A DNA stretch of 64,000 bases from Rhodothermales bacterium (GCA_965262785.1 OZ253559.1:2158597-2222596), one strand, 5' to 3'. Counted from the first letter of the stretch, positions 1,590 through 24,279 are shown. Notes: a model not told the origin generated them from the letters alone. A program made the numbers and translations.

Positions 1590-2621
1590 ATGGCAGTCGC
1601 AATAGATGAACGCCTGCGCACAAGAGGCCCGCTGCTCCGCTTGCTGTCGCGGTCGGAGTTTGGCGCATTGGGCGGCGCCTTCGTCGTTTGGGCGTTTTTT
1701 GCCGTTGTAGCGGGTGACAGTGGCTTCTTAAGCCTTCGCGGCACTGCAACATACCTGGAAGTAGCAGCCGAGCTTGGAATTGTTGCCATCGCGGTGGCGC
1801 TGCTCATGATAGGCGGGGAATTCGACCTTTCGGTGGGTTCTCTGATGGGTGCCTCCGGGATGCTTCTTACGATACTGGCGGTGCAGTATGGCTGGAACTT
1901 CTGGGCAGCAATTGTAGCCGTTGTCGCCTTTGCGATCTTGGCCGGGCTCTTTAATGGATACTTGGTAATCCGGACCGGGCTGCCGTCGTTTATCGTCACG
2001 CTTGCAACCCTGTTTATCTTCAGGGGCGGCACCATCGGCCTGACCCGAATGGTCACCGGGCGCACGCAGGTCGGTGGCTTGCAGGAAGTTGCCGGCTATG
2101 GCGTGGCCCATACCCTGTTCTCCAGCGACATCACGATTGCGGGCGTGGGGTTTCCGGTGAGCATTGTTTGGTGGCTGGCCCTGGCGGCACTGGCGACTTG
2201 GGTGCTGTTTCGAACTCCGTTCGGAAACTGGATCTTTGGCACGGGAGGGGATGCCAAAGCTGCAAGCAGTGTAGGGGTCCCGACGGGGCGCGTGAAGGTT
2301 AGTCTGTTTGTAGCAACGGCACTGGCTGCTGCGCTAGTTGGAGTTATACAGGCTGTCACGTTTAGTGGAGCGGATGTTTTGCGTGGCGAGTTGCGCGAAT
2401 TCTATGCGATCATCGTCGTGGTAATAGGCGGCACGCTCCTGACAGGTGGTTACGGCTCCGCCATCGGGGCGGCCGTTGGCGCGCTCATTTTTGGCATGGT
2501 CCGGCAGGGTATCGTGTTCACAGGTGTGGATGCGGACTGGTTCAAGGTGTTTCTGGGGGGCTTGCTCCTTATTGCGGTATTGGTCAACCACTGGGTGCGC
2601 CGACGCGCGATAAATGCATGA
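1590..2621 (+). CDS. Sugar ABC transporter permease (RbsC/AraH-like)
   Basis: 343-aa multi-pass hydrophobic protein. It starts 3 nt after the binding-protein stop and overlaps the ATPase gene by ATGA. Confidence 0.8.
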
Positions 2622-3367
2622 CCATGGATTCGGCTATACCGCTTCTAGAGACGATAGGCCTAGGCAAGTTCTTCGGGCGTGTTATTGCGCTCAAGGACAT
2701 TGCCATGCGTCTACATGAAGGTGAAGTAGTGGCTCTCTTGGGAGACAATGGTGCAGGCAAGTCTACGTTGATTAAGTGCCTGAGCGGCGTCCACGCGCCT
2801 GACGAAGGGGCTATGCTGCTGCGAGGCGCGCCGGTTCGATTCAAAGAGCCGCGCGACGCGCTGCGGCACGGCATAGCCACGGTATACCAGGACCTGGCAA
2901 TGATTCCGCAACTTGGCATCGCACGTAACTTTGTGCTGGGCGCGGAGCCAACCAAGGGCTGGGGGCCCTTTAGGCGGCTTGACCTGGATGCGGCTACCCG
3001 TACTACGCGAGAAGGGCTGAAGAGGCTGGGCATTGATTTGCGGGATGCGGCAGAGCCCGTAGGTACGCTATCGGGCGGCGAACGGCAATCCGTTGCCATT
3101 GCTCGTGCATTGCATTTTGGTGCGCGCGTGCTCATCCTTGATGAGCCGACCTCGGCACTGGGCGTGGCGGAGTCCGAGCGTGTATTGCAGGACATTGACC
3201 GTGCACGGCACAGAGGCGTAGGCATTATCTTGATTACGCACAATGTGCATCACGCGTATCCTGTCGCCGACACGTTTACGATCCTTAGGCGCGGGCGCAG
3301 CTACGGCACGTTTGCCAAGGGTGCGGTGACTCGCGAAGAAGTACTGGCTATGATGGCAGGACAATAA
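2618..3367 (+). CDS. ABC transporter ATP-binding protein (single nucleotide-binding domain)
   Basis: Walker [10 protein letters not shown], signature LSGGERQ, Walker [12 protein letters not shown]-loop ITHN. Confidence 0.88.
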
Positions 3368-3379
3368 ATACATCGAATC

Positions 3380-4858
3380 ATGACGCCTACTGTGCTGCTT
3401 CCCAACTTCATCGGCGGTGGATGGCAGAAGTCCATTGCCTCTGAGTACCTCCACGTAACCAATCCGGCTACCGGAGAGGTTATGTCTGAAGTGCCGCTCA
3501 GCCCTGTTGAAGAGGTTGGCAGGGCGGTAGAGATTGGGGCAGAGGCTTTCAAGTCCTGGCGGCGCGTGCCGTCTACAGACCGCATTCAATTCCTTTTTCG
3601 ATTCAAGAATCTTCTTGAAAAGCATTTTGAGGAAATTGCCCGGACCATGACCGAGGAATGCGGCAAGACGGTCGGTGAGAGCCGTGGCGAGTTACGTCGA
3701 GGCATCGAAAACGTGGAAGTCGCCTGCGGCATTCCCAGTCTTATGCAGGGCTACAACAACGAGGACATAGCGCGAGGCATTGACGAGCATATGGTGCGTC
3801 AGCCGTTAGGGGTCGTGGCTTGCATCACGCCATTTAATTTCCCGGGCATGATTCCGCTATGGTTCTTGCCCTATGCTATTGCGACCGGTAACTGCTTCTT
3901 GCACAAACCGAGCGAAAAAGTCCCAATGACCAGCCAGTGGCTAATGCGCCTGCTTGGCGAAACCGGGCTCCCTGGTGGCGTGGTCCAGATGGTGCACGGG
4001 GGCAAGGCCGCCGTGGATGCGCTATGCGATCATGCTGGCGTGCAAGCTGTCAGCTTTGTAGGCTCAACGGCCGTAGCGCGGTATGTGTACTCCCGGGCTA
4101 CCAGGAGCGGCAAGCGTGCCCAGTGCCAAGGAGGTGCCAAGAACATGGCAATCGTCCTTGACGATGCTGACATGGAGATGACTGCACAGATCGTCGCTGA
4201 TTCCGCCTACGGCTGTGCCGGTCAGCGGTGCTTGGCAAACTCGCTGGCGGTCATGGTGGGGAATGCCCGCGGCCCGTTTACGGAAGTCATGCAAGAGGCT
4301 ACCAAGTCGCGTCGCGTGGGGTATGGACTGGATGAGATGTCCCAAATGGGTCCGGTCATTACGTCCGAGAGTCAAAGCCGCATAGAAGGCCTGATTGGAG
4401 CAGCCGAGCAGGAAGGTGCAAGCGTGCTGGTGGACGGGCGTGGTAGCGTGGTGGACGGGTTTGAAAATGGCAACTGGGTGTTTCCGACGCTGCTGGACGG
4501 CGTGCCCCGTGGGGGATTGATTGCTACGACTGAAATTTTTGGCCCCGTTTTTGGGCTCATGCACGCTGACAGCCTGGAAGAGGCAATCAGGCTAGTCAAT
4601 GAGCAAGCATTCGGCAACATGGCGTGTTTGTTTACAAGTAGTGGAGCCGCGGCGCGACAGTTCAGGACGGAGGCTGAGGCCGGCAACATCGGCATCAACC
4701 TCGGTGTTGCCGCGCCGATGGCATTCTACCCGTTTAGCGGGTGGAAAGACAGTTTTTTTGGCACGCTTCATGCCCAGGGTCGGCACGGCGTAGAGTTCTA
4801 TACGCAGACGAAGGTCGTCATTGAGCGCTGGCCTAGTGCGTGGACACGAAAGTTCTAG
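3380..4858 (+). CDS. iolA: Methylmalonate-semialdehyde dehydrogenase (CoA-acylating), IolA/MmsA
   Basis: ALDH superfamily with MmsA-type motifs (FNFPGMIPLWF, HKPSEKVP, catalytic GQRCLA), next to iolD. Confidence 0.85.
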   Translation: MTPTVLLPNFIGGGWQKSIASEYLHVTNPATGEVMSEVPLSPVEEVGRAVEIGAEAFKSWRRVPSTDRIQFLFRFKNLLEKHFEEIARTMTEECGKTVGESRGELRRGIENVEVACGIPSLMQGYNNEDIARGIDEHMVRQPLGVVACITPFNFPGMIPLWFLPYAIATGNCFLHKPSEKVPMTSQWLMRLLGETGLPGGVVQMVHGGKAAVDALCDHAGVQAVSFVGSTAVARYVYSRATRSGKRAQCQGGAKNMAIVLDDADMEMTAQIVADSAYGCAGQRCLANSLAVMVGNARGPFTEVMQEATKSRRVGYGLDEMSQMGPVITSESQSRIEGLIGAAEQEGASVLVDGRGSVVDGFENGNWVFPTLLDGVPRGGLIATTEIFGPVFGLMHADSLEEAIRLVNEQAFGNMACLFTSSGAAARQFRTEAEAGNIGINLGVAAPMAFYPFSGWKDSFFGTLHAQGRHGVEFYTQTKVVIERWPSAWTRKF

Positions 4859-5686
4859 GTATCGGGGCATCCAACCGCGCGCGCGGAAAATATCTTCGCA
4901 CCGCAAGTCGGTACCCAAAGCTTACCCGAGCGGCGGATGCGCTGTAGGATAGTGGGTCTCAGCTGATTCCCACTCGCAAGGCCTCAGTCAGGCCGTGTGC
5001 GCTAGTCGACCGGAGTTGCTTCAACCAATGGTTCCCATTGGGCCCTAGCCGTACTCGCCCGTGGTTCTATTGACCTCTAGCCAGGTGTTCTCCAGGTCGC
5101 TTCGGTAGCATTCTGTCAACATTCCGCCACCCACCTTACACTGCAGTGTAAAGGTGAGCTTTTTGCCAGGGGCGGGCATTTTGGACTCTTCGTATGCAAT
5201 TGTCACGGCATGTTGCCCCCGGTCTGAGCTGCCGAAGTCTGCAGGATCGAATCTGCCATAAAATCATGCTGGTCCAGTCCCTCTGCGGACGCCACCCACT
5301 CTGCATACGGAAGCACCGCGCGCTGCAGGCGGAGGCCAGATTCAGTCCGCTGCCACGTTTGAAAACTCTATCTCTTCGAAGGCTTGCCGCTGCTAACTCG
5401 ACCCGCGAGGGTTTGCCGAGTCCGCAGTTCGGGCGCGGGGCAGGCCGGGCTTTGGCATTGGTGGAGGGCGGTTGTATGCCCGCAGGCCTGGCAGTCTCAA
5501 TCCGCAGGACACGTCTAGGGTTTTGGGCTGCGCACAAGTGATACCAGATAGAACTACGTCCTTGTAACACGCCAACTCAGATACTTGTAGTCAGGGCATG
5601 ACCGCAAGTATTGGAGTAGGCTACATGCGCAGAGAGTTCGTAAATTGTACGAGACGCCTTTCGAGATTTCGCTGCAGAGCACGAGA

Positions 5687-6238: not shown

Positions 6239-6381
6239 AGGCGGCAGCGCTACAAGTGACCGGTACCACGGCGCGTGAGGAGTCATTCTCGGTTTTCACG
6301 TGGCTGAAAAGCCGGGATACTGGTTGAGAGCCGCCTCAATGGCTGGGTGATTTCGCGTGCTGTACACTAATTTCAGCGGAC

Positions 6382-8129: not shown

Positions 8130-8230
8130 GCGTGTGGACAAGAGTCAAACAAGGCTGGCCACTGGCAATGGTTTAATCGTCATCCCATTTGTATCCTTTG
8201 CGCAGATTTGCCGTGAACATACCATAGCGC

Positions 8231-10558
8231 ATGGCGCCTGTTAGCTCCATACCTCTGCATGAAACAGCGCGGTCGCGGTATCTCAACTATGCACTATCTG
8301 TCATCACCAGCCGGGCGCTGCCTGACATCAGGGACGGGCTGAAGCCCGTTCAACGACGGATCCTGTACACCATGTTCGCGAGTCTGCGGCTGTTTCCAGA
8401 CGCGCGGTATCGCAAGAGCGCCACCATCGTGGGCGACGCCATGGGCAAGTACCATCCCCACGGCGATTCGGCAATCTACGATGCTATGGCACGCATGGCC
8501 CAGGACTTTTCCCTTCGCGATCCTCTGGTAGATGGTCATGGCAACTTCGGGTCGGTAGACGGGGACCGCCCGGCGGCTATGCGATATACGGAAGCCAAGC
8601 TGCGCCCACTGGCGATGGAGATGCTGCAGGAATTGCGGCAAGCCACTGTACCCTTCCGGCCCAACTTTGACGGCACGCTTTCCGAGCCGGTAGTCCTGCC
8701 TTCCAAAGTGCCCAACCTCCTTGTTAACGGCGCAACCGGGATTGCCGTCGGAATGGCTACTAATATTCCACCACACAACCTGGGTGAGGTGATCAGCGCT
8801 GCCATGTACATGGTTGACGGAAAGCTCAAGTCTGGGGGCGGCGAGTGGCCCAGTGTGAGAATCCGAACCCTGGTCAAACGCTTCATCAAGGGTCCGGACT
8901 TTCCAACAGGAGGGCGCATCCTCAACACGGAGGACGAACTGGTAGCGATTTACACGAAGGGAGAAGGGCCAATCAGCCTCCGGGGCGAGTACCGAATGGA
9001 GGGCAAGAGTCGCGTCACTATCAACTCGATTCCGTACGCGATCAACAAAGGTGATCTCGTAGAAAAAATTGCAGAGAACATCGCGTCGGAAAAGGTGCCG
9101 CAGATCACTGATGTACGAGACGAGTCGACCAGCGATGTCCGCATTGTTTTGGAGCTCAAGCGGGGGGCCAGCGCAGACGCCGCACTCGGATACCTTTTCA
9201 GGCGCACGCAACTGGGCACGCGGTTTCATGTGAACCTCACTGCGCTTGTGCCGACCGAGAATGAACAGATAAGCGCGCCACGGAAGTTCGACCTGTGGAC
9301 GGCGCTAAGGCTATTCTTGGATTTCCGGCTGGACGTGGTCACGCGCAGGCTTCGTCACGAGTTGGAACAGCTTGAAAAGCGGATTCACATTCTAGAGGGA
9401 TTCGAAGTAGTCTTCGACGCATTGGATGAGGCAATCAAGATCATACGATCCTCAAGGAACCGCGCAGACGCGGGACAGCGCCTCCGTCATCGGTTCACGT
9501 TGACGGAGATCCAGTCGGATGCCATCTTGGATACGCGGCTATACAAGCTGTCGCAGATGGAAATTGTTGCCATTCGGGAGGAGCTGAAGGCCAAGCGGAA
9601 GCGTGTGGCTGAGATCGTAGCCCTTCTGGCGGACGAGCATGCCCGGTGGCGCATTGTTCGCGCAGAGCTCAAGGGAATAAAGGACAAGTATGCCACGCCA
9701 CGGCGCACCACTATAGGCGGGCCAGATGAAGACACGTACAGCTACTCGGAAGCGGATTTCATAGTAGACGAGTCGACCATCATCGTGGTAACGCGCGATG
9801 GCTGGGTCAAGCGGCAACGCTCGTACACCAATATAGGCAGTATTCGAATTCGCGAAGGGGACCAAATCGGCTGGATCGTGACGAGTCGGACGCGCAAGAC
9901 GGTAACTTTCTGGACAAACTTTGGTCGTGCTTACACCGCGCGTGTCAATACGATTCCGATGTCGTCGGGATACGGCATCCCGATGCAGAAGCTGTTCGAC
10001 TTTACAGACAGGGAGCGAGTAGTCGGAGTGGCGTCAAATTACATTAAAGCATTGCCGACGGTTACTTTCGGCAAAGAGCAGCAGCCAGTTGAGGAGAGCG
10101 GCGCTGGTCCGATCGGATATGTGCTGGCGTTTTCACGTGCGGGCTTCTGCATAAGACTTGGGCTGGATGCCTTTGCGGAGCCCTCAACCAAGTCTGGCCG
10201 GTACTACATGCGCGTCCCAGACGGGGACGAGGTCCTAGGCGCTTGGCCGGTCGGCGGCAAAGAATATGCGTGCCTCGCGTCCCATAACGGAAGGGGGCTT
10301 GCATTTGCCGTCTCAGATGTGCCGCTACGCAAGAGTGCCGGCAGGGGTGTACAATCTATTAAGCTGGACGATGGCGACTTTGTGTTCGGCGTGACCGTTA
10401 GCAAGAAAAAATCCGAAGGCTTGGTCGTCAAGACCAAGCGCGGCCGCATGGTGACTATTCGGGCAACGAAGTCGTATCACGGTCGCCGGGCCGCGAAGGG
10501 ACGCGCGATCATAAATAGCGGCAGCCTTGCCCAAGTTGTTGAAACTCCGTTGGAGTAG
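8231..10558 (+). CDS. parC: Type IIA topoisomerase subunit A, ParC-like (topoisomerase IV subunit A)
   Basis: GyrA/ParC N-terminal motifs ([26 protein letters not shown], catalytic AAMRYTE). 775 aa, with no GyrA-box (QRRGGKG) in the C-terminal beta-pinwheel. Confidence 0.75.
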
Positions 10559-12670: not shown

Positions 12671-14467
12671 CCCGCATCGCTCACCAAGCTCTTGAATCGC
12701 CAAAGTTCGAGGCGTCCGTAGCCAATGGGTCATGGTCTGGGCATGTGAATGCTGATTCCAGCCTTCTGGGGCATTTAGTTGGCGGCAGTAAGCGCTGTTT
12801 TGGGCGCGCTTCGAGCGGGAATCAGCCCTTTTGTTCGTGCACCGGTGCTTCTTGGATACACGTATCCAGCAACCACCATGTGGAGTCTGCCAATTTCTGG
12901 GACAAGTCGGATCAGGAAGTGCCTATGAAGGTGAGGCGCGCGCGCCGACCGTGGTGGCGTGCACAGTGCCGCGCAGGTTGCTTAGTACGCGCGCGAACAG
13001 TTGCTGCCACGGATACGCCTTGGGAAAGAACAAGCGGACTCGGCGCACGCTTACCACGACCAGTGCGGCGATCTTGAGCAACCGCACTCGGATGGTACCG
13101 CACTGTGCCTGCGCCATCGAAGTGCCCTGCAAGCCAAAGGTCTTGATGATGGTCATCAGGGTGTTGGCGACCGTAGAGAAGTACAGGCGCAGCTGGTTGC
13201 TCTGCATCATGGACGTAGAGGTGCGGTCAGCGAACAGGGTCTGCTGCTGCTCCTTGAGCCGGTTCTCCATGTCTCCACGCGCACAGTACAAATCCTCGTA
13301 TAGCGTGCGCGCATCGTACGCGTCTTCGCTGAAATTGGTGACCACGAATCGTGCGTTGTAGCCGCGCGGTCCAGGCAGTCATTCCGCCTTGGCTATCACG
13401 CGCCGCGCACAGCTCCAGCTGTCCTTCGTTCGGTACTCGAAGCTGCGGAAGCGCCGCGAAGGCTGCCCGCTGGCCTCGCAGGTGGCCTGACTCTGCTGCA
13501 TAGCCCCCTCAACGATGCGTTGCAGCCGCGCATTGCGCGGCATACCAATGATGTAGTGCAGGCCCTGTGCTTCGCACCATGCCATGATATCATCGCGGCA
13601 GAATCCTGCATCTGCACGAATCCAGATGGGCACCTGTGGCCACCGCGCTCGGATACGCGCTACCACGGGCGCCAACTCCTCTATCGTGCCCGCTGATGCG
13701 TCCATGTTGGAGGGGCGCAGACGAGCGGCCAGCACATGTTTGCCGCTAACGATGTACAGCGGCAGGTAGCAATAGTGGCCATAGTAACCATGAAAGAAGC
13801 GCCCCTCTTGCTGGCCGTGAATCGCGTCATCGGTAGCATCGAGATCCAACACGATGTTCTCTGGCTCCTCGCCCGTTACATCCATGAACAAGTCCGCGAG
13901 CATGGTGTCGATCTTTTCAGGGTCCGCTACGATGCGCTTGTACCTGTGCGATGCGGCCCCTTCTTTTGAGCCGAGCTCCAGTCGGTTCAGTGTGCTGGAA
14001 CTCGCCAGCGGATGTCCCTGGTCGCGTTCCCGTACCCGGTGCACCCCTGTTACATCCTCGCAGCCCACGCCCATGGCCAACACGGGATCGTCCCGCAGGC
14101 GGTCATGGTCGTTCACGTCTTCGTGGCCCAAGCATATCGCGTAGATTCGGTGCCTGAGCATCGCCTCCACGGTATGCTCTACTCTGCCGGGATCACGGTG
14201 GTCGGTGAAGCAGGCGGCCAAGCGGCCTATGACGTCGAACATCCGGTCGGCCTCCCGTAGCAGCAGCGCACCTGCGTCCGAGGACATGGGGCCGCCGTCG
14301 AACTTTCCGACCACTTTACGCCGTCCCAAACCCTCGAAACGAAGCGCTTCAGTATGACAGTCTGTTTTATTCACGCGCAATGCAAAAGATGGTTATAACC
14401 AATTGCATATCAAACACTTACGTGGGATTTGGGTTCCAATTCTTGGCACCCTGGTGAGTTTTCCGGG
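12671..14467 (-). mobile_element. IS1380-family insertion sequence (~1.8 kb)
   Basis: Terminal IRs start with CCCG (left CCCGCATCGCTCACCAAGCTC versus the reverse complement of the right end, CCCGGAAAACTCACCAGGGTG; 14/21 match). A 4-bp direct repeat CTAA flanks the element (12667-12670 and 14468-14471). It contains the IS1380-type transposase. Confidence 0.55.
12923..14380 (-). pseudogene. IS1380-family DDE transposase interrupted by one in-frame TGA (13379-13381)
   Basis: The 333-aa ORF (FEGLGRRKV..FDGG..SSDAG.LLLRE, FFHGYYGHYCYLPLY) and the 140-aa ORF (YCARGDMENRLKEQ, LLKIAALV) are in the same frame and separated only by the TGA. Together they are collinear with full-length family members. 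Confidence 0.8.
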
Positions 14468-15266: not shown

Positions 15267-16394
15267 ATGAAGCGACCTCGACCGTCACCCACCCGTCGCA
15301 TTCAACGAATCCTCTGGTCCGAGTCCATGGGCCGTTGTATGAATCCCGCCTGCCACCAGGATCTCTTCCAAAACGGTGCATACATCGGAGAGTTTGCACA
15401 CATTATACCGCACGCCAATGGCGGCGACGTGACATCGAATAACCTGATTGTCCTCTGTTGCAATTGCCACACCGACATTGATTCCGAAGCCGGGCGAACC
15501 CAAGCGATAATTCGCATGCTTCGAAACTGGAAGTCCGAGAGAAATAGGGACATCCGTGCTAGGTTCTCCCAGCAAATTGAGACGTTTGTTGATCTTAGAC
15601 AAGCCGTACTGCCTGCTCTACGACGCAATCGCGCCATCTTCAAGAGCTATGGTCCGCAACATTCGCGGGATGACGAACAGTTACATCCGCTATGGTTGAC
15701 ATTTGAGCCCGAGCTGATTGCGAACAACGAGAAGCTCGTCTTGTTATTCGAGAGGAATCGCGATCTATTTCATCCAGAGAACGCCAACGTTGTAGATCAA
15801 TTCTCTGCTCACGCAAGAGAATTTGCCCAAACCAGAGGTAAGGCCGGTTTTGTCCGTGTCAATCTGTTCCCCGACAAGCTGCATTCGATTTTTGGCCTCA
15901 CCGCTGTGCGGTCATCGCCTCCTTCTAATCTCTCAGCTCTTCAGAATCTTGTGTCCAATCTGATTTCAACAGGGCGATTCATTGCATTGGAGCTAGTGCC
16001 CGATCCAATTCTCACATATCGCCATGGCAAGGATATAGTTGAGTTGCACCTTGCAGATCGCCCGAGAATTCTCCAAATCTACTGGGCTAATAGGTTCTAT
16101 CACCCTCAGACTACCGATCTCCGGCTTAGACAGCTAGTGTTCTTTCTGGGGTGGCTGTACCGGAATGGGGTCGAGTTCGCGTTCCGTGACTACCGCAAGC
16201 TGACCGAAATCAAGATAGCCGACAAGCACCATGCTTTATTAGGCTATAAATACTGCCTGTCGTTGGCCGATCTCCACGACCAACTGACTCCAGACGTCGA
16301 TGTTGTCATCAACCTCCACCACTGGGGCGGCGGTCGGGCTAGCGCTGCCGTTTACCCAAGTTTTCCCCTTGACATTCTGATTTATGCCGCATAG
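15267..16394 (+). pseudogene. HNH endonuclease-domain protein gene whose 3' end is displaced by an IS insertion (ancestral ORF = 15267..16344 joined to 18978..19072, 390 aa)
   Basis: N-terminal HNH motif (C..PAC ... EFAHIIPHANGG ... NLIVLCCNCH). About 300 aa of unassigned C-terminal sequence follow. The last 16 codons before the stop at 16394 are read from the IS terminal repeat. Confidence 0.75.
16345..16362 (+). repeat. Left terminal inverted repeat of the Tn5-like IS
   Basis: Exact reverse complement of 18952-18969. Begins CTG, as Tn5 ends do. Confidence 0.9.
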
Positions 16395-16403
16395 ATTGGC
16401 GGC

Positions 16404-18686
16404 ATGTTCCAGCAGAACCAGATTCTTCGTACGCTGAGCGAGGCGCAATCCCAGGCGCGTCTGGACGGCATCTTGGCTGATGAGGGTCTGAAGAACCGTG
16501 CCGCCATCGCCCGGCGTGTGTGTGCGGCATTCGATTTTTTCGACGCACGCGGGCAGTCGCAAGTAGCCAGTTGCGCCAAGGCGCTCTCGAAGCTGTCCGA
16601 CCGCGGCTGTATAGCACTGCCGGCGCCGATGAACGACCACGCTGCCGGCGCGTCCCCCCGGCTGCTGAAGGAGGGCGTGCCCATGCCGAGTGCCCTTCCT
16701 CGCTCCGTCCGCGAAGTGGATGACCTGTCGCTGATCGTGGTCACGGACGACGACCAGCGCGCCGTATGGAACACCCTATTGGACCAGGAACATCCGCGGG
16801 GCACGACGACGTTCTTCGGCGCGCAGGTGCGCTACCTGGTGCATAGCGCGCAGGGCTATCTGGGCGTGCTGGGCTTTTCGGCCTCGGCCCTGCGTCTGGC
16901 CGCACGGGAGCGATGGATGGCCTGGAGCGATGCGCAGCGCCAGGCCCACCTGCATCATGTGGTGTGTTTGAGCCGCTTTTTGATCCGGGGACCCTGCACG
17001 CACCTGGCGAGCCATGTCCTGGGCCTTGCGCTCAGGCAGCTGCCCGATGATTTTGAAGAGCGTTACAGGTACCGCCCTTGGGTGGTGGAGACCTATGTGG
17101 ATCCGAACTGGAAGGGTACATGCTTCCAGGCGGCAAACTTTCTGCACATTGGTTATACTGCCGGCGGCAAACGACAGTCCGACGATGAACCCGAGCCGCC
17201 CAAGGCGCTGTATGTGTACGAACTGGACCGCGGGTGGCGCCAGGCACTCGGCGTGCCGGCGGTGGAGCTCCATCCTGTGAGAGCACCCCACGAGGCGTTG
17301 GACCGTGACCAATGGGCGGAAGCCGAGTTCGGGGACGCTCCACTGGGCAATCGGCTGCGCTCCACGCGCCTGGTACGGAGTGCGTCGATGCTGGCTTCGG
17401 TGATGGGCCAGTCCATTACGGGCAATACGGACTACGATCGTGCGGCGGTCAAGGCGCATTACCGGTTGCTGGAGAGCGACCCGGCGTCCAAGGTCACTCC
17501 GGAAAACATATTGGCGCCGCATCGTGCGCGCACGATCGAGCGCATGCGCAGCCAGAAGGTGGTGCTCTGCATCCAGGATGGCAGCCGGCTGCGCTATGCC
17601 ACGCGTCCGGCCTGCACGGATCTGCAGGTCACCGGCCGCAACCAGACCACGGCGCAAACGCGTGGGATGCATGTACATGCGACGCTGGCGACCACCTCCG
17701 ATGGTCTGCCGCTGGGCGTGTTGCGCTGCAGCTACCGGGATCCTTCGCACGGTCCCCTGAAGCCGAAGGCCCAACGATGGCTGGACGCCTACCTGGACAT
17801 CTGTGCGGCGGCCGATCAGATCTCCCGCAAGATTCGCGTGATCTGCGTTATGGACCGGGAGGGCGACAGTTTTGCGCTCTTTGACGCCCAGCGTCGTCAG
17901 GGCCGCGTGGAGATGCTGGTCAGGGCGCGGATAGATCGCCGGCTGGCCAACGGCAGGAAGCTGTTTGAGACCCTCGCGGGCGGCCCGGCGGCCGGCAGCG
18001 TGCGGATCGAGATCAAGAAAGTCACCGCACGCCCGAAGTCACGGGGCAAGCCCGCACGCCCCGGGCGCAGCTATCGCATAGCGGACGCCGAGGTGCGGTT
18101 CCACCGGGTGACGCTGCCGGCCACGACCCAGGAGGCAGATCCGGTGACGATGTACGGGGTTCACATCCGGGAGCAGGCCCCGCCGGAAGGCGAAGAGGCC
18201 ATAGAATGGTATCTGCTTACCAGTGTGGCGGTGCACACGCTGGAGGAGGCCCTGCAGGTGCTGGACCACTACGTGAAGCGGTGGCGCGTTGAGGACTTCT
18301 TCCGGGTGCTTAAGAGCGGCTGCAAGGTGGAGCGTCTGGCGCTGCGCACGGCGCTGCGTCTGGAGCGGGCGATCGCGATCTACTGCGTTATTGCCTGGCG
18401 CCTGATGGTGCTGACGCTATTGGGGCGAACCGTGCCAGAGTTGGACTCGGAGGTCTTCTTCACGGAGTTGGAGCTTCGTTTTTTGACGAGCTATGCCAGC
18501 CGTGTGAAGCTGCCTCGGCCCGGCACGCTGCAAGAGGCCATCCTGCTGCTGGCGGTACTCGGGGGGTACCAGAATCGCACTCGCGACGGGCCGCCCGGTC
18601 ACCAGATCATGTGGCGCGGGCTGGAACGATTGGCGCTGGCCACACTGGGATACGAGCTGGGATACGAGGTCCGTGACGCTGAGTAA
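16404..18686 (+). CDS. Tn5-like DDE transposase fused to a ~300-aa N-terminal DUF4338/DruA-like domain
   Basis: C-terminal two-thirds: Tn5-type DNA-binding region (LGN.RL..RLVRSA..LA), DDE residues in IQDGS / MDREGD / YVKRWRVEDFFRVLKSGCKVE. N-terminal third: FGAQVRYLV ... RPWVVETYVDPNWKGTCFQAANF, which I recall as DUF4338-type. Confidence 0.8.
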   Translation: MFQQNQILRTLSEAQSQARLDGILADEGLKNRAAIARRVCAAFDFFDARGQSQVASCAKALSKLSDRGCIALPAPMNDHAAGASPRLLKEGVPMPSALPRSVREVDDLSLIVVTDDDQRAVWNTLLDQEHPRGTTTFFGAQVRYLVHSAQGYLGVLGFSASALRLAARERWMAWSDAQRQAHLHHVVCLSRFLIRGPCTHLASHVLGLALRQLPDDFEERYRYRPWVVETYVDPNWKGTCFQAANFLHIGYTAGGKRQSDDEPEPPKALYVYELDRGWRQALGVPAVELHPVRAPHEALDRDQWAEAEFGDAPLGNRLRSTRLVRSASMLASVMGQSITGNTDYDRAAVKAHYRLLESDPASKVTPENILAPHRARTIERMRSQKVVLCIQDGSRLRYATRPACTDLQVTGRNQTTAQTRGMHVHATLATTSDGLPLGVLRCSYRDPSHGPLKPKAQRWLDAYLDICAAADQISRKIRVICVMDREGDSFALFDAQRRQGRVEMLVRARIDRRLANGRKLFETLAGGPAAGSVRIEIKKVTARPKSRGKPARPGRSYRIADAEVRFHRVTLPATTQEADPVTMYGVHIREQAPPEGEEAIEWYLLTSVAVHTLEEALQVLDHYVKRWRVEDFFRVLKSGCKVERLALRTALRLERAIAIYCVIAWRLMVLTLLGRTVPELDSEVFFTELELRFLTSYASRVKLPRPGTLQEAILLLAVLGGYQNRTRDGPPGHQIMWRGLERLALATLGYELGYEVRDAE

Positions 18687-19821: not shown

Positions 19822-19865
19822 CGAGCTTCGAGGCGGAGCAGCGAGCTGCGGAGCCTCGAAGCTCG
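19822..19865. repeat. 44-nt imperfect hairpin (13-bp perfect outer stem) 11 nt from the IS1595 insertion site
   Basis: CGAGCTTCGAGGC ... GCCTCGAAGCTCG, with an inner GCAG/CTGC pairing. Confidence 0.5.
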
Positions 19866-19884
19866 AAGTCGAACAGATTGTTTT

Positions 19885-19906
19885 GGGAATTATGTACTAT
19901 AGTTGA
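19885..19906. repeat. Terminal inverted repeat (cargo-distal end) of the IS1595-family transposon
   Basis: Reverse complement of 23225-23246 except for the outermost base. Preceded by the ATTGTTTT target repeat. Confidence 0.9.
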
Positions 19907-19918
19907 TGCCTAGGCAGG

Positions 19919-20080
19919 TTACTTCGCCGCCTTGGGCATCTTCTTGGTGGGGCGCATTAGCGCACGTGCTATCTCCAGCGGGGTCTTGCCACCGTAGCGC
20001 GGGTTTGGGCTGGGGGTGTTACTGATACGGTCGAACTCGGCCTTCAACTCTTCTTGCGTGGCTTCTTGTGGGTCAGACAT
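19919..20080 (-). CDS. Hypothetical 53-aa protein (last gene inside the transposon)
   Basis: ATG at 20080 (MSDPQEATQEELKAEFDRISN...KKMPKAAK). The ORF ends 12 nt inside the IR. I recognise no family. Confidence 0.35.
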   Translation of the reverse strand: MSDPQEATQEELKAEFDRISNTPSPNPRYGGKTPLEIARALMRPTKKMPKAAK

Positions 20081-20157
20081 GATGTGTGATGGTGTGTGGC
20101 CTTGCTGTGCAGAGCGAAATGTACGAAACGCATAGCGCATCTGCTTTACTCATTGCC

Positions 20158-21240
20158 CTACTTCGCTCCCTTCCTTCTGTTGTCATCCCGGCAAAGCATC
20201 TGGCAATTCTCCACCACCGTCGCGCCACCTTTGGCCCACGGCGTGATATGGTCCGCCTCCATTTGCGACAAATCGAACTCATCACCGCACTTTGCGCACT
20301 TGCCGTTCTGACCCTCGTACACGCGCCGTTTCATCGTATCAGTAAACGCCCGAATGTCCAGATGCGATTCTTCGCGTGTGAGAATGTACGCGTAGATGCC
20401 CGACTGCTTTTTTACGTCATCGTCGGTTAGCAAGCGCTGTGTTTCTTCTTCAACGGCTTCACGGTCAACCGGCTTGTCGCGGTGCTCGTCGTAAAGCAAG
20501 CCCCAGTCCACGCCACGCATCAGTCCCGGACGGGTGTTGAAGCACGACTCCGCCCACTCAATCACCTCTCGAAAATGTTCCCACAGTGGCGTTGCGCTGT
20601 CGTCGTGCTGGTGCCTGCCCATGTAGTCTTCGATGTCGCCGCCGCTTATCCACTTGATCGCCGTCTCCAAATAGTCCTGCCGTATCGCCTTGCCTTTTAG
20701 GTGGCCGTTGCCTATCTGATACGCCGCACCGCCCACCCTGCTGAAATACCGCTTGGCGTCCGATATCCACGGACCCGAAAAGACGGCGTTGCGCAACTCC
20801 TGATCCGTCAGCTTCTCCCCGGCGATGTTGACCGTCCTGAACCACTCCAGCTTCTCGCTGTCCTTCCCTGTGCAAGCGTAGACCATCAACTCGTAGTCCA
20901 GTACGCACCTCTTCTTGTCGGCGGGGAGATTGTGATAATACAAGCCGTCAATCGAAAAATCGCCCTCGACGTATTGCGCAATGGATATCGTCCGCTGCTG
21001 GCCGTCGATAACCTCGTACTCGTCGCCGCCCTTATCCGCCCAATACATGACATTCAGAGGAAAGCCCCTGTTGATCGTGCGGATCACGGCGTCCCGCTGC
21101 TTGTCCTTATACACGAACTCGCGCTGAAACGCGGGGCGGATATCCAACCGTCCGCCATAGCCCACAACGCCGCCCTCGCCGTCATCCTGGTAGTCCGCCA
21201 CCAACTTCCTCACTGTGACACTGCGCAACTCGATTTTCAT
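20158..21240 (-). CDS. DUF262 (ParB/GmrSD-N-like) domain protein with a C-terminal HNH nuclease
   Basis: N-terminal RPAFQREFVY ... VIDGQQRTISI (DGQQR motif). C-terminal HNH: KCAKCGDEF...ADHITPWAKGG...NCQMLCRDDNRRKG. Its start overlaps the methyltransferase stop by ATGA. Confidence 0.8.
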   Translation of the reverse strand: MKIELRSVTVRKLVADYQDDGEGGVVGYGGRLDIRPAFQREFVYKDKQRDAVIRTINRGFPLNVMYWADKGGDEYEVIDGQQRTISIAQYVEGDFSIDGLYYHNLPADKKRCVLDYELMVYACTGKDSEKLEWFRTVNIAGEKLTDQELRNAVFSGPWISDAKRYFSRVGGAAYQIGNGHLKGKAIRQDYLETAIKWISGGDIEDYMGRHQHDDSATPLWEHFREVIEWAESCFNTRPGLMRGVDWGLLYDEHRDKPVDREAVEEETQRLLTDDDVKKQSGIYAYILTREESHLDIRAFTDTMKRRVYEGQNGKCAKCGDEFDLSQMEADHITPWAKGGATVVENCQMLCRDDNRRKGAK

Positions 21241-22214
21241 TGACGAGCCTTCTTGTGGCGAATGACGATACGAGCATACAATTCCTTGCCTTTGATTCTA
21301 AACCTGCTCTGCTTACCGGTTAGTTCCTTAACTAATGAGCGATCCATACCAAGCACTTCGAACTGATCGGGATTGTGTTTGTCCAGAAAACTGATTGGCA
21401 CACCCATCGCGCCATCGCAGTCGGACGGGATGTGCGCCGTCTTGTTCACGTTGATCGCGTCATAATTGTCGTATTTCGGGTATTCTTTCGGCGAATACCT
21501 CTTGTACAGCACCAATTCCTCGTGACGCTTTGCGTGGTCAAGATTGGTGAACCAACATGCATTTCCCAATCTGCCCTTAATGACACCATCTACTGCTTTG
21601 TAAGCACTGCCTTCTTTCTTTGTTTTAACCAACTCCCGCGCATAGTCTTCCGGTACGTCAAAAAGCATATCGCGGCCAGCAGGACCGCGACCAAGCCACA
21701 ATTGATTGTCCCTAATCAGCGGGAATATCTCCCGGTATGTTATCGCGTTCATGTTCCCGATCACCAGAAACTTCTTGTCGTGTTCGACCAGTTGCGCGAT
21801 ATACTCCCTGAACAACGAAAACGGTGGGTTCGTAACCACAATGTCGGCTAATTTCAGCAACGCGACGCATTCTTGACTCCGAAAATCGCCATCTCGTTCA
21901 AGTTGAAACACATGCTCATTGTCACCTGCATACTCAACCCCGACAGCCGACTCCGTGTCATGCTGGCTGAACAGATCGGGCCGCTGATTCCTGTAACAGG
22001 TCGTAATCAGCTTCCCGAGTCCGAGCTTGTCGAAGTTCAGGTGGAAGTAGCGGTAAAAATTGCTGATCGTTGGATCGTCGCAGTTGCAGTAGACGACTTT
22101 ACCGGCAAAGTGATGCCTGTAGTACCGTAGCTCCTTCTCAATGTCCGAAAGCTGGGTGTAGAACTCGTCCTGCTTCGCCCGGTTCGCGGCGTGTAGCGAC
22201 CTGTTACCCGACAT
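21237..22214 (-). CDS. N6-adenine DNA methyltransferase, M.EcoRI-like family
   Basis: Collinear with M.EcoRI as I recall it: DEFYTQ, KVVYCNCDDP, DIVVTNPPFSLFREY, DKKFLVIGN, YPKYDNYDAINVNKT, GVPISFLDKHNPDQFE. I take the start as ATG 22214 (MSGNRSL), which overlaps the transposase 3' end by 11 nt. Confidence 0.85.
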   Translation of the reverse strand: MSGNRSLHAANRAKQDEFYTQLSDIEKELRYYRHHFAGKVVYCNCDDPTISNFYRYFHLNFDKLGLGKLITTCYRNQRPDLFSQHDTESAVGVEYAGDNEHVFQLERDGDFRSQECVALLKLADIVVTNPPFSLFREYIAQLVEHDKKFLVIGNMNAITYREIFPLIRDNQLWLGRGPAGRDMLFDVPEDYARELVKTKKEGSAYKAVDGVIKGRLGNACWFTNLDHAKRHEELVLYKRYSPKEYPKYDNYDAINVNKTAHIPSDCDGAMGVPISFLDKHNPDQFEVLGMDRSLVKELTGKQSRFRIKGKELYARIVIRHKKARQ

Positions 22215-23169
22215 GAGCCATAGCCTCCTGCGGGTTCCCCACCAACTCCCGATACAGCACCCGCCGCCCAACCATGCCTGCCACCACGTGCTGCATCTGG
22301 GCCTCCGTATCCATCGGGCGCATATTGTGTTTGCCTGCGAATTGAGCAATGTAGCGATTCAGGTGCTTCTTGCTGATCTGGTGGTAGGTGCCGTGGTACG
22401 CACGCTTCAGCACAGCCCAGAATGATTCTATGCCGTTCGTATGCGCCATACCGTTGACGTATTCCGAAACACTGTGCTTGACCGCCTCATGCTTCACGCC
22501 TGCCATGCCCTTGTAGGCACGAGCTTCGTCCGTGTACACCATTGAGCCTTCGGCTGCGACATCCGCGACAAAGCCTTGCAATGTGGCCGCATCCGTACGA
22601 TCAACGACCTGCGCCATAATTTTGCCCGTAGCACGATCTCTTGCGCCAACTACCGCTGCCTTAGCCACAGGTCCGCGCCCAAGGTTCGCCTTCTTGTGCG
22701 CGTGCTTGTTCTTCTCCAGCCCGCCGAAGTACGCCTCGTCAACCTCTACCGGACCCTTGAAGGCGGCTGCCAACTCTCCCTTCAATGCCTCGCGGATGCG
22801 CTGTAGCATGAACCAAGCTGTTCTTTGCGTTACACCAACATCGCGGTAGAGCTTCATAGAAGCCACGCCCTTAAGGCTGGTACTTTCAAGATAAATCGCC
22901 AACACCCACTTGCGCAAAGGCAAATTGCTGGATTCTATCGCGGTGCCAGTCTTGACCGAGAAATACTTTCGACAATCACTGCAACGGTACGGCATCGTCC
23001 GGTGCTTGCAGCAGTATACTTTGGTACTACCACAACGCAGACAAAACTTCTCTCCGTCCGGCCAAACTACTCCTTCAAACCATTTGCGCGCCGCCGCTTC
23101 ATCCGGTATCATGTCCATCAGTTCGATCAGCGTCATGCCCTCGCGATATGCTTTTCCCGGTTCAGCCAT
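22204..23169 (-). CDS. IS1595-family transposase (N-terminal zinc ribbon plus ISXO2-like DDE domain)
   Basis: CLRCGS...YRCSDCRKYFS zinc ribbon, DEAYFGG, YTDEARAY, NGIESFWAVLKR. 321 aa, as expected for the family. Confidence 0.85.
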   Translation of the reverse strand: MAEPGKAYREGMTLIELMDMIPDEAAARKWFEGVVWPDGEKFCLRCGSTKVYCCKHRTMPYRCSDCRKYFSVKTGTAIESSNLPLRKWVLAIYLESTSLKGVASMKLYRDVGVTQRTAWFMLQRIREALKGELAAAFKGPVEVDEAYFGGLEKNKHAHKKANLGRGPVAKAAVVGARDRATGKIMAQVVDRTDAATLQGFVADVAAEGSMVYTDEARAYKGMAGVKHEAVKHSVSEYVNGMAHTNGIESFWAVLKRAYHGTYHQISKKHLNRYIAQFAGKHNMRPMDTEAQMQHVVAGMVGRRVLYRELVGNPQEAMAHVG

Positions 23170-23224
23170 TCCTCTCGTTTCGTTTATTTGATTACCCTAA
23201 ACGTACGAATTTCCGAGGACAATG

Positions 23225-23246
23225 TCAACTATAGTACATAATTCCG
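23225..23246. repeat. Terminal inverted repeat (transposase-proximal end) of the IS1595-family transposon
   Basis: See 19885-19906. Followed by the ATTGTTTT target repeat. Confidence 0.9.
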
Positions 23247-23511
23247 ATTGTTTTTGGCCCTATTCCGCAGTGCGTGACGGCGGACGTGACAGGTTAATCC
23301 AGTAGGCCGCCCCCGGACGTACAATTGTACGGATAAGGCCGCGAAGTCGCCGCTTGAGGCGCCTTTGTCCGGCCAAGAAGGGCTCTTGCGTCGACATTGG
23401 CACGGATGCCCGAGTGTGCCACGTGTCCCGAACTGACGCCAGGCGCTCACCTCGCGCCTTCCTGTAAGCGCTTGGACCACATCCCAGGGCAGGACCGCGC
23501 ACGCTGCCTAC

Positions 23512-24279
23512 TCAGGGCGCAGGTTCACCCACGGCCTGGGCCTCTTGGCGCCGCTTGGAGGCCTCCAGACGGTAACTCGGCACATTCAGCTCCAGGATCG
23601 CGCTGTGATGTACCAAACGGTCTATGGCCGCGGCCGTCGTCATCGGGTCCTTGAAGATGCGCTCCCACTGGCTGAAGGCCAGATTGCTCGTAAGCAACAC
23701 GCTGCCCCGCTCGTAGCGCTGCGACAGCAGCAGGAACAGCACCTCCATCTCCTGGCGGCTGTGCTGCACGTAACCGATGTCGTCGATAATGAGCGCCTCA
23801 AAGCGCGCGAGCCGCTTCAGGAGCTTGGGCAGGCGCAGCTGCTGTTTGGCCCATAGTAGCTCCTGCACCAGTGTGCTGCAGTTGTAAAAGATCACGCGAC
23901 GCCGCTGAAAGATCAGCTCCCGGCCCAGGGCACACACCAGGTGCGTCTTGCCGCTGCCGGGAGGGCCGAAGGCCAGAACGTTCTCCTTGCGGTCCAGGAA
24001 GCCTCCCTCCAGGAGCACACGCAGGTGGTGATCTATCCGCAGGGGCAACCGGCCACGATCGAACGTGTCCAGCGTCTTCTCCAGCGGCAGCCGAGACGCA
24101 CGCAGCCAACGCTGGATGCGGTTGCTGTGGCGCTCCTGCTGCTCCTATTCCACCAGCCCAGGTTTACCATGCACTTTTTCAAGTCGTTTATGCTCACGGA
24201 CTTACGACCTTGGCAAACGCTCCGAGAAAAGGTACAGTTCTCTGTGCTCCCGCAAACAAGGCGCCGCTGTCTGATTCAT
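23512..24279 (-). pseudogene. istB: IS21-family istB (AAA+ helper) remnant with two in-frame stops and no istA
   Basis: Walker A GPPGSGKTHL, Walker B LIIDDIGY, and a C-terminal IDRLVHH. The upstream continuation is IstB-like but has TAG at 24145-24147 and TAA at 24202-24204. The position where istA should sit is occupied by the decarboxylase gene. Confidence 0.7.

Follow-up and report, generated by a model that had tools for sequence, protein, structure and literature searches.

An IS1595-family insertion sequence of a Rhodothermales bacterium with a predicted EcoRI-family methylase and DUF262-HNH nuclease pair as cargo

Insertion sequences (ISs) of the IS1595 family have inverted repeats of about 25 bp, generate 8-bp target duplications and can harbour passenger genes (PMC5704250, PMC3129680). 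The category of 'transporter ISs' (tISs), namely ISs with passenger genes, was introduced together with the family by Siguier et al. in 2009 and is exemplified by tISCpe8 and MTnSag1 (PMC3129680, PMC5704250). Transposon-like restriction-modification (R-M) units with inverted repeats and 8-bp duplications were reported by Furuta, Abe and Kobayashi in 2010 (PMC2853133). The unit of Neisseria gonorrhoeae has 26-bp repeats, an 8-bp duplication, homologues of a Type IIG R-M enzyme and of an S subunit, and a COG3677 transposase-like gene, and the XorKII unit of Xanthomonas oryzae has 65-bp repeats and an 8-bp duplication (PMC2853133). For the association of ISs with genes of R-M systems or methylases, Furuta et al. 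refer to the IS1595 paper (PMC2853133, PMC3467074). In this work, we analysed a stretch of 64,000 nucleotides from a Rhodothermales bacterium (GCA_965262785.1 OZ253559.1:2158597-2222596), called the window hereafter, whose own positions are used throughout. It contains a 3362-bp unit that is probably an IS1595-family transporter IS carrying an R-M pair, composed of an EcoRI-family methylase and a nuclease with DUF262 and HNH domains.

The unit spans positions 19885-23246 and comprises four uninterrupted open reading frames (ORFs), all on the minus strand, for a transposase, a methyltransferase, a nuclease and a small protein. The features are given below, IRL and IRR being the left and right inverted repeats relative to the transposase gene (tnp).

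19877-19884: target-site duplication, copy 1, ATTGTTTT, identical to 23247-23254
19885-19906: terminal inverted repeat at the small-ORF end (IRR), GGGAATTATGTACTATAGTTGA
20080..19919, minus strand: small ORF of 53 aa, an IS-backbone gene, with an alternative open reading of 73 aa from 20140
21240..20158, minus strand: DUF262+HNH nuclease of 360 aa, with DGQQR at 20992-21006 and the C-terminal zinc-finger HNH at 20179-20298
22214..21237, minus strand: EcoRI-family N6-adenine methyltransferase of 325 aa, with NPPF at 21819-21830 (aa 129-132)
23169..22204, minus strand: IS1595-family DDE transposase of 321 aa, with the N-terminal zinc ribbon at 22972-23043
23225-23246: terminal inverted repeat at the transposase end (IRL), reverse complement CGGAATTATGTACTATAGTTGA
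23247-23254: target-site duplication, copy 2, ATTGTTTT

The ends of the unit are defined by a perfect 21-nt inverted repeat, GGAATTATGTACTATAGTTGA, at 19886-19906 and 23225-23245. With up to three mismatches allowed, this sequence is unique to its two sites in the window, and it was found in none of 100 shuffles. Adding one base yields a 22-bp repeat in which 21 of the 22 positions match, the sole mismatch being the outermost base (G versus C). The chance of finding eight identical bases outside both ends, at fixed positions, is about 1.5e-5, and the uninterrupted target site would read GTCGAACAGATTGTTTTTGGCCCTATTC. The terminus GGGRATTAT is common to this element and to those at loci L002, L007, L054, L089, L132, L160 and L176 of other genomes or metagenome assemblies, and 8-bp target duplications are also found in the relatives L002, L089, L116, L132, L160 and L192; the duplications of the related elements are A/T-rich. 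A 9-bp duplication (GATTGTTTT) is formally possible as well. We set it aside and consider 8 bp to be the correct size because six related elements have 8-bp duplications with GGGRATTAT termini. In the ISfinder family table, the ISNwi1 subgroup has ends that read 'ggnnatTAT' and includes an 'ISNwi1+' class of 1.75-4.75 kb with passengers; the ends of the window element suggest that it may belong to this subgroup. The same insertion was found in an independent metagenome assembly, L001. As for recent activity of the window copy, it is only suggested by the intact repeats and duplication.

The four genes could be assigned as follows. The transposase matches the Pfam families DDE_Tnp_IS1595 (PF12762, 1.5e-37) and Zn_ribbon_IS1595 (PF12760, 5e-6), and it covers the whole NCBIfam profile transpos_IS1595 (NF033547, positions 1-215 of 215, 7e-55), above the cutoff. 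More than 7,600 proteins match it at E<=1e-40, and its nearest relatives, 66-76% identical, are located in cargo-free ISs. The ATG of the methyltransferase gene lies 11 nt within the 3' end of tnp, and its product matches the Pfam family EcoRI_methylase almost end to end (PF13651, 1e-124, profile positions 2-345 of 345, 416.8 bits for a gathering cutoff of 26.4), as well as the PADLOC profile MTase_II (PDLC03297, 2.2e-120, end to end). The start of the nuclease gene overlaps the methylase stop (ATGA). The nuclease matches GmrSD_N/DUF262 (PF03235, 3.5e-20, aa 34-154) and HNH (PF01844, 4.8e-13), with PF14279 also scoring at the C terminus, and no DUF1524 domain was detected with Pfam at E<=0.01. 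Its residues 1-359 of 360 align with the PADLOC profile REase_II (PDLC03418, 1.7e-132), and there are also PADLOC matches to NsnA and PD-T4-2_A. The motifs DGQQR (aa 79-83) and CxxC...DH...N...CxxxC...N (aa 315-354) are invariant in the alignment of homologues. An earlier interpretation of this DNA, made without database searches (the sequence-only reading), had proposed the 3362-bp unit with its repeats of 21 matches in 22 and its perfect 8-bp duplication, the four intact co-oriented genes with 11-nt and ATGA overlaps, and the IS1595, M.EcoRI-like and DUF262-plus-HNH assignments. The coordinates and the sequence agree with the former claims, all genes and overlaps being present on the minus strand, and the profile matches and catalytic motifs bear out the assignments.

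The sequence-only reading had listed the 53-aa ORF among the cargo, a view that has to be abandoned. The ORF, which has no match among Pfam, NCBIfam or PADLOC profiles, belongs to a family of 26 cluster representatives, all of about 50-70 aa, retrieved at E<=1e-3 among 1.84 billion proteins, with the consensus AEFDRI.NTPSPNPRY.G.TP.E.AR.LLRP.KK. Its position directly 3' of the nuclease gene in the short contigs L083 and L087 might have made it an R-M gene, an idea that we rejected since it is also found behind tnp in cargo-free ISs. L192 is a complete cargo-free IS of 1.26 kb that consists of tnp and the small ORF, with repeats GGTGATTATATAGTTAACTGAAAC / GGCGATT... and the 8-bp duplication TAATACTT. 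In L191, tnp is followed by the small ORF (hidden Markov model E-value 6.5e-22) and then by IRR, and in L189 tnp is also followed by the small ORF (E 4e-15). As these cargo-free relatives keep the ORF after tnp, it can be attributed to the IS backbone. The element is thus organised as IRL - tnp - [cargo slot] - small ORF - IRR, with a 2.05-kb R-M insert in the slot of the window copy.

Homologues of the small ORF also occur elsewhere. One of them, at L084 (5001-5204; also in L085 and L086), has no transposase or R-M gene in view; this homologue (P0123) sits between unannotated genes for 153-aa and 137-aa proteins in a Logan-assembled genome. A second family of small ORFs, whose members are 46-53% identical, is present at the right ends of L089 (12062-12298), L132, L160 and L176 (7144-7320). 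It has the motif ...YQPTKADM..DVSVPVSPERLAKAV..GGA.RRE and is found in elements with GGGRATTATATACGATAGTGCCC ends regardless of cargo. Homology between the 53-aa ORF and this second family was considered and dropped: hhalign gave 53% at first, but the alignments had rows in common, and with these removed the probability was 0.3-7.5%. The two families have in common just their position and a TPExxAxAxL..KK motif, and we do not claim homology.

The association of the methylase with the nuclease extends well beyond this element. The nuclease family counts more than 8000 homologues, almost all of 360-373 aa, and the best 120 of them are 63-83% identical to the window protein and come from several phyla. 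We collected 80 nuclease loci from species-representative bacterial and archaeal genomes. An EcoRI-family methylase gene lies directly upstream and in the same orientation in 77, and the remaining three are on contigs that open with the nuclease gene. The tblastn alignments of the two proteins are at most 40 nt apart in 44 loci. The pair is also present on many plasmids without any IS, for instance on plasmid pDSM14862_g of Sulfitobacter indolifex DSM 14862, on a plasmid of Aeromonas caviae Aero21 and in Mammaliicoccus, Enterococcus and lactobacilli, and some of these IS-free carriers are small plasmids of cultured bacteria. Given the methylase upstream in 77 of 80 loci, the plasmid occurrences and the full-length matches to PADLOC Type II profiles, the M.EcoRI-like and DUF262-HNH pairing is, judged by gene neighbourhood, the norm for this nuclease family and not an oddity. 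Thus, the sequence-only reading was mistaken in regarding the pairing as unrecognised, and its suggestion of a Type IV-like partner has become less likely in view of the fixed pairing, the IS-free plasmid pairs and the PADLOC Type II match. As both proteins match REBASE-derived PADLOC profiles end to end, the usual programs for finding defence systems would report a Type II R-M system here; this label is an annotation and could not be traced to a biochemically characterised enzyme or recognition site. In particular, GAATTC cannot be assumed to be the site of the methyltransferase despite its membership of the EcoRI_methylase family. A search for palindrome avoidance, in which observed and Markov-expected counts of 4- and 6-mers were compared over 0.96 Mb of host loci, revealed just generic avoidance of CTAG, GATC and GGCC and no common signal. 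Relatives of the nuclease that are full-length or nearly so (35-55% identity) are found in phages, namely Flavobacterium phage vB_FspS_laban6-1 and human-gut phage contigs.

The same methylase-nuclease cassette is found within matching inverted repeats in three other genomes. In L002, the repeat is GGGRATTATATACGATAGTAGCCA and the duplication TTTTCAAT, and two extra genes of no named family lie between IRL and tnp; compared with the window proteins, identity is 83% for its nuclease, 75% for its methylase and just 54% for its transposase. In L007, a Longimicrobiales metagenome-assembled genome (MAG), the repeat is of 26 bp and the duplication approximately TTGTTTT. A Paracoccaceae MAG (L054, L055, L058 and L060) has 99.9%-identical copies of a 3478-bp unit at three or more sites, and the 23-bp repeat of this unit, GGGAATTATATCGCAAAGTAACA, is perfect. 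The notion that the passenger genes are part of the IS and not chance neighbours, already put forward in the sequence-only reading, is upheld by these occurrences. They support the view that the IS1595-family element is the vehicle of the cassette. When the nucleases are placed in a neighbour-joining tree, the IS-linked copies all group in a single clade, together with three loci that have transposase fragments; the members of this clade come almost entirely from MAGs of uncultured organisms, Poribacteria and Poriferihabitaceae among them. The nuclease is IS-linked in 8 of the 80 loci, counting the three transposase fragments and the four loci of the single Paracoccaceae genome. Around R-M pairs of the same clade that are devoid of tnp, a search for inverted-repeat remnants gave one possible right-end remnant (L004) and no others.

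Two of these genomes display additional features. L007 also carries, between IRL and tnp, a Panacea/SocA-like gene (4111-4883, minus strand, 1.4e-14), accompanied by a 97-aa ORF with a predicted membrane helix. Together they look like a PanA-type toxin-antitoxin (TA) pair that would ride the same IS beside the R-M pair. The Paracoccaceae copies of L058 and L060 (around 6360-6369) are 1 bp shorter than those of L054 and L055 and have a methylase gene split in two frames, next to an intact nuclease gene. The frameshift is either genuine, with the other copies supplying the function in trans, or due to a homopolymer error of long-read sequencing.

In sister elements, this slot is occupied by other cargo. 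When metagenomes were scanned for the degenerate end GGRATTATRTACKATAGT, 101 stretches matched, about as many as chance would give, but five of them have two inverted end copies 2.6-2.9 kb apart. These five are complete elements, with an 8-bp A/T-rich duplication and the order tnp, methylase, nuclease.

L089 and L116, the same element at two sites: 2622 bp, duplications AAAAATTT and TTAAATTT, MT-A70 methylase and BglII-like nuclease
L132 and L165: 2611 bp, duplication TTTTATTT, methylase and Eco29kI-like GIY-YIG nuclease
L160: 2898 bp, duplication AAAAGATT, Dam-like methylase and PADLOC REase_II

Furthermore, Type III mod and res genes lie between the same ends in L176, and a Panacea-domain gene (8161-9061, 1.8e-14) is found in L125. 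In most sister elements, the stop of tnp and the start of the cargo have 4 nt in common. L089 and L160 have transposases with 88% identity and yet unrelated R-M pairs. As backbone and cargo histories disagree, the comparison indicates repeated exchange or capture of cassettes at what appears to be one slot of the IS. A tentative extension of this idea is that the IS1595 subgroup with GGGRATTAT ends, 8-bp A/T-rich targets, tnp and a gene of about 50 codons might be a dedicated shuttle for interchangeable addiction or defence cassettes. It is possible, if somewhat less than even, that at least four unrelated Type II R-M pairs, one Type III system and Panacea TA-like modules have been swapped into the fixed slot between tnp and the small gene. 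We would also only tentatively propose that the overlap of the tnp stop with the cargo start couples IS expression to the module and lets the IS stabilise itself. Next to the cargo-free relative L189 lie two tandem Mrr_N/Mrr_cat genes, which are Type IV restriction-like (2378-4341, minus strand).

How does the window element compare with the described systems? It has in common with tISs such as tISCpe8 and MTnSag1 an IS1595-type zinc-ribbon/DDE transposase, repeats of about 22-25 bp, an 8-bp duplication and passengers downstream of tnp within the repeats. The cargo of these tISs, a lincosamide-resistance gene with mobilisation functions, differs from the R-M pair found here, and the window subgroup is also set apart by a conserved backbone gene of about 50 codons at the far end and by the overlap between the tnp stop and the cargo start (PMC3129680, PMC5704250). 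Like the units of Furuta et al., the element has R-M genes within terminal repeats and an 8-bp duplication, and the Neisseria unit also has an IS1/IS1595-type transposase gene. However, those units are decayed (truncated R-M genes, a 'likely inactivated' transposase) or without a transposase, whereas transposase, methylase and nuclease are intact in the window element; unlike those units, its sisters show multi-copy spread and several cargo types. With the EcoRI R-M system it shares a methyltransferase that is a full-length member of the EcoRI_methylase family (PF13651) with NPPF, but its nuclease is unrelated to R.EcoRI. The nuclease resembles GmrSD, BrxU and SspE (DUF262-DUF1524) by its N-terminal DUF262 (ParB/Srx-like) domain with DGQQR and by its C-terminal His-Me-finger nuclease; its C terminus is nevertheless a PF01844/PF14279 HNH with CxxC/CxxxC zinc ligands and not DUF1524, and unlike stand-alone enzymes of the GmrSD type it is obligately paired with an N6-methyladenine (m6A) methylase. 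Since passengers of IS1595 elements (PMC3129680, PMC5704250) and R-M units of similar shape (PMC2853133) were already described, this is not a new kind of system, and the novelty claimed in the sequence-only reading was too strong. What may be new is the clade-level pattern, in which a single slot takes many unrelated R-M or TA modules, the cargo is coupled to tnp and the small backbone gene is conserved.

We propose that the zinc-ribbon/DDE transposase would recognise the ends of about 22 bp with their GGGRATTAT terminus and insert the whole 3.36-kb unit into A/T-rich 8-bp targets, which would thereby be duplicated. The overlaps between the tnp stop and the methylase start and between the methylase stop and the nuclease start suggest that tnp and the two cargo genes are read as one coupled operon; because these overlaps imply a single operon, the methylase would be made before the nuclease and be coupled to it. 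The EcoRI-family methylase, with its NPPF motif, would mark host adenines at its recognition site, and the DUF262-HNH nuclease, whose DUF262 domain is ParB-like and probably nucleotide-binding, would cut DNA without the mark. It is fairly probable that the nuclease is blocked by methylation in its mode of action. The DUF262 domain hints at nucleotide binding, which would be atypical for Type II enzymes. By landing on a replicon, the IS would bring restriction of phages and plasmids, and its loss would be penalised by post-segregational killing by the R-M pair, which in turn would be carried by the IS between replicons and phyla.

Several observations weigh against the element being a functional transporter IS with a methylation-blocked R-M pair. 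There is a single copy of the element within the window, the outermost bases of its terminal repeats are mismatched, and its G+C content (0.541) is just slightly lower than that of the flanks (0.58). Most Paracoccaceae copies have no clean duplications, which points to later recombination or to MAG assembly problems; L054 alone comes close, with 7 of 8 positions, and clean duplications are not recovered either when the flanks of L058 and L060 are swapped on the assumption of an inversion. As for the enzymes, PDB sequence and profile searches gave nuclease matches confined to the HNH motif, no match for the methylase and, at the sequence level, no match of the nuclease to any solved GmrSD, BrxU or SspE chain. 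Our literature search found no published account of the DUF262+HNH/EcoRI-methylase architecture and no characterised enzyme that could be named. The 2008 classification of restriction endonucleases has no matching HNH subfamily, the GmrSD phylogenomics paper does not treat DUF262+HNH proteins, and LcaA2P is I-HmuI-like. An AlphaFold2 model of the nuclease, built on an 18-sequence alignment, has predicted local distance difference test scores that stay under 50 in the greater part of the DUF262 domain (mean 66). Finally, the characterised DUF262 nucleases are modification-dependent Type IV (GmrSD, BrxU) or modification-sensing (SspE) enzymes, not classical Type II, and SspE acts together with a modification module of the host (PMC12707154).

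The last point leads to a different view of the nuclease, as a modification-dependent or modification-sensing enzyme of the GmrSD/BrxU or SspE type, for which the methylase would supply a self mark read by the DUF262 NTPase domain. By analogy, it may read the m6A mark as SspE reads its modification, instead of being blocked by it. The classification of the N-terminal domain as GmrSD_N in Pfam, the PADLOC matches to NsnA and PD-T4-2_A and the want of a nameable Type II enzyme with DUF262 and HNH domains speak for it. Nevertheless, the fixed order of methylase then nuclease (77 of 80 loci, small plasmids), with overlapping stop and start codons, is the signature of a protective methylase, and a nuclease that attacks the mark of its own neighbour would be suicidal; moreover, the C-terminal domain is a PF01844 HNH and not DUF1524, and the protein matches the PADLOC Type II nuclease profile over its full length. 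We therefore regard such an enzyme as improbable here. A non-classical, nucleotide-dependent or mark-sensing mechanism is kept in view, with similarly low expectations, because DUF262 is otherwise known from GmrSD/BrxU and SspE. The HNH nuclease might also work for the transposon, as an accessory enzyme of the homing type or one that cuts the target, comparable to IscB or TnpB with IS200/605, in line with weak NCBIfam matches of its HNH region to IscB and Cas9d (1e-5 and 1e-8) and with the presence of homing enzymes among many HNH families (PMC2441816). However, these matches are limited to the HNH motif of about 60 aa, and the nuclease is linked to an IS in just 8 of the 80 loci, yet always to a methylase. 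In sister elements, the same slot holds PD-(D/E)XK, GIY-YIG and Type III enzymes, and cargo-free relatives transpose without such a nuclease, the duplication of L192 being intact, so that an accessory role is very improbable.

With the R-M reading of the pair retained, it may still be asked whether the genes form one mobile unit and whether this unit is alive. An IS1595 copy could have landed beside a resident R-M pair, with an outer repeat that is solitary or fortuitous. The region does contain much debris of mobile elements (a truncated istB at 23512-24048, transposase genes at 13379-14380 and 16404-18686), and the window has one copy of the element only. Yet the 8-bp duplication encloses the entire 3362-bp unit, the terminal repeat occurs at its two places alone, the small backbone gene lies beyond the cargo beside IRR as in cargo-free relatives, and three other genomes have the unit with repeats and duplications of its own, including the 99.9%-identical multi-copy units. 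Chance juxtaposition is hardly credible and is effectively refuted. Alternatively, the element might look intact but be functionally dead, that is, a fixed single copy whose transposase, R-M pair or both are silent and which is too young for decay. Its single occurrence and mismatched repeat base would fit this, as would the frameshifted methylase genes of two Paracoccaceae copies and the result of a simple scan, which found no sigma-70-like promoter upstream of tnp. That scan was a crude consensus match, though, and the four full-length ORFs with catalytic motifs, the perfect target duplication and the presence of the same insertion in the independent assembly L001 argue for a functional element. 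On balance, we deem a dead element unlikely, without dismissing it.

The window is a chromosomal core region, with genes for topoisomerase subunits, GltX/GlnS-type synthetases, methylmalonyl-CoA mutase, S1, NusA and IF-2. It is broken up by several transposase genes, and the element lies inside a patch of mobile-element debris at 13-24 kb. The transposase end of the element is 266 bp away from a truncated gene for the IS21 helper IstB (23512-24048, minus strand), which covers profile positions 80-236 of 238 only, and hence the IS landed in or beside older debris. On the other side, a strong hairpin (19822-19865), with 21-nt arms CGAGCTTCGAGGCGGAGCAGC/GCTGCGGAGCCTCGAAGCTCG that are 86% complementary and a 2-nt loop, is separated from the insertion point by 12 bp and may represent either a terminator or a feature similar to repetitive extragenic palindromes near the target. 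The promoter and terminator scan gave nothing that exceeds shuffled expectation, and no match was found in an Rfam scan of the 64-kb window. A 760-aa ORF (16404-18686, plus strand) encodes an N-terminal DruA domain (Druantia; PF14236, 4e-25) fused to a Tn5/IS4-type transposase with the domains Tnp_DNA_bind, DDE_Tnp_1 and Dimer_Tnp_Tn5. The same architecture is present in L002 (1-2165), about 450 bp from the R-M-carrying IS. Other genes of the window code for a 333-aa DDE_Tnp_1_4 transposase that matches part of the profile only (13379-14380, minus strand), a 375-aa protein with an N-terminal HNH motif (15267-16394, plus strand) and a 604-aa DDE_Tnp_1 transposase (52852-54666, minus strand); no long repeats connect these three genes in the window.

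R-M systems have long been argued to be selfish mobile elements, mostly on indirect evidence such as phylogeny and flanking repeats. The transposon-like R-M units reported earlier are decayed or have no transposase; here, the transposase, methylase, nuclease and ends are complete, which makes this element an intact natural example. Its sisters are present in several copies in one genome and at different sites in different samples, and the finding that transposases 88% identical to each other go with R-M cargo of unrelated kinds at one position suggests that cassettes are exchanged on a common IS platform. The DUF262+HNH nuclease, always paired with an EcoRI-family methylase, represents a very common and apparently uncharacterised architecture, whose mechanism may not be classical Type II. 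These elements offer a tractable model to ask whether an R-M system stabilises an IS, whether the IS spreads R-M systems between phyla and how the cargo is swapped. If the shuttle pattern is true and undescribed, it would provide a concrete, testable route for the long-discussed mobility of R-M systems.

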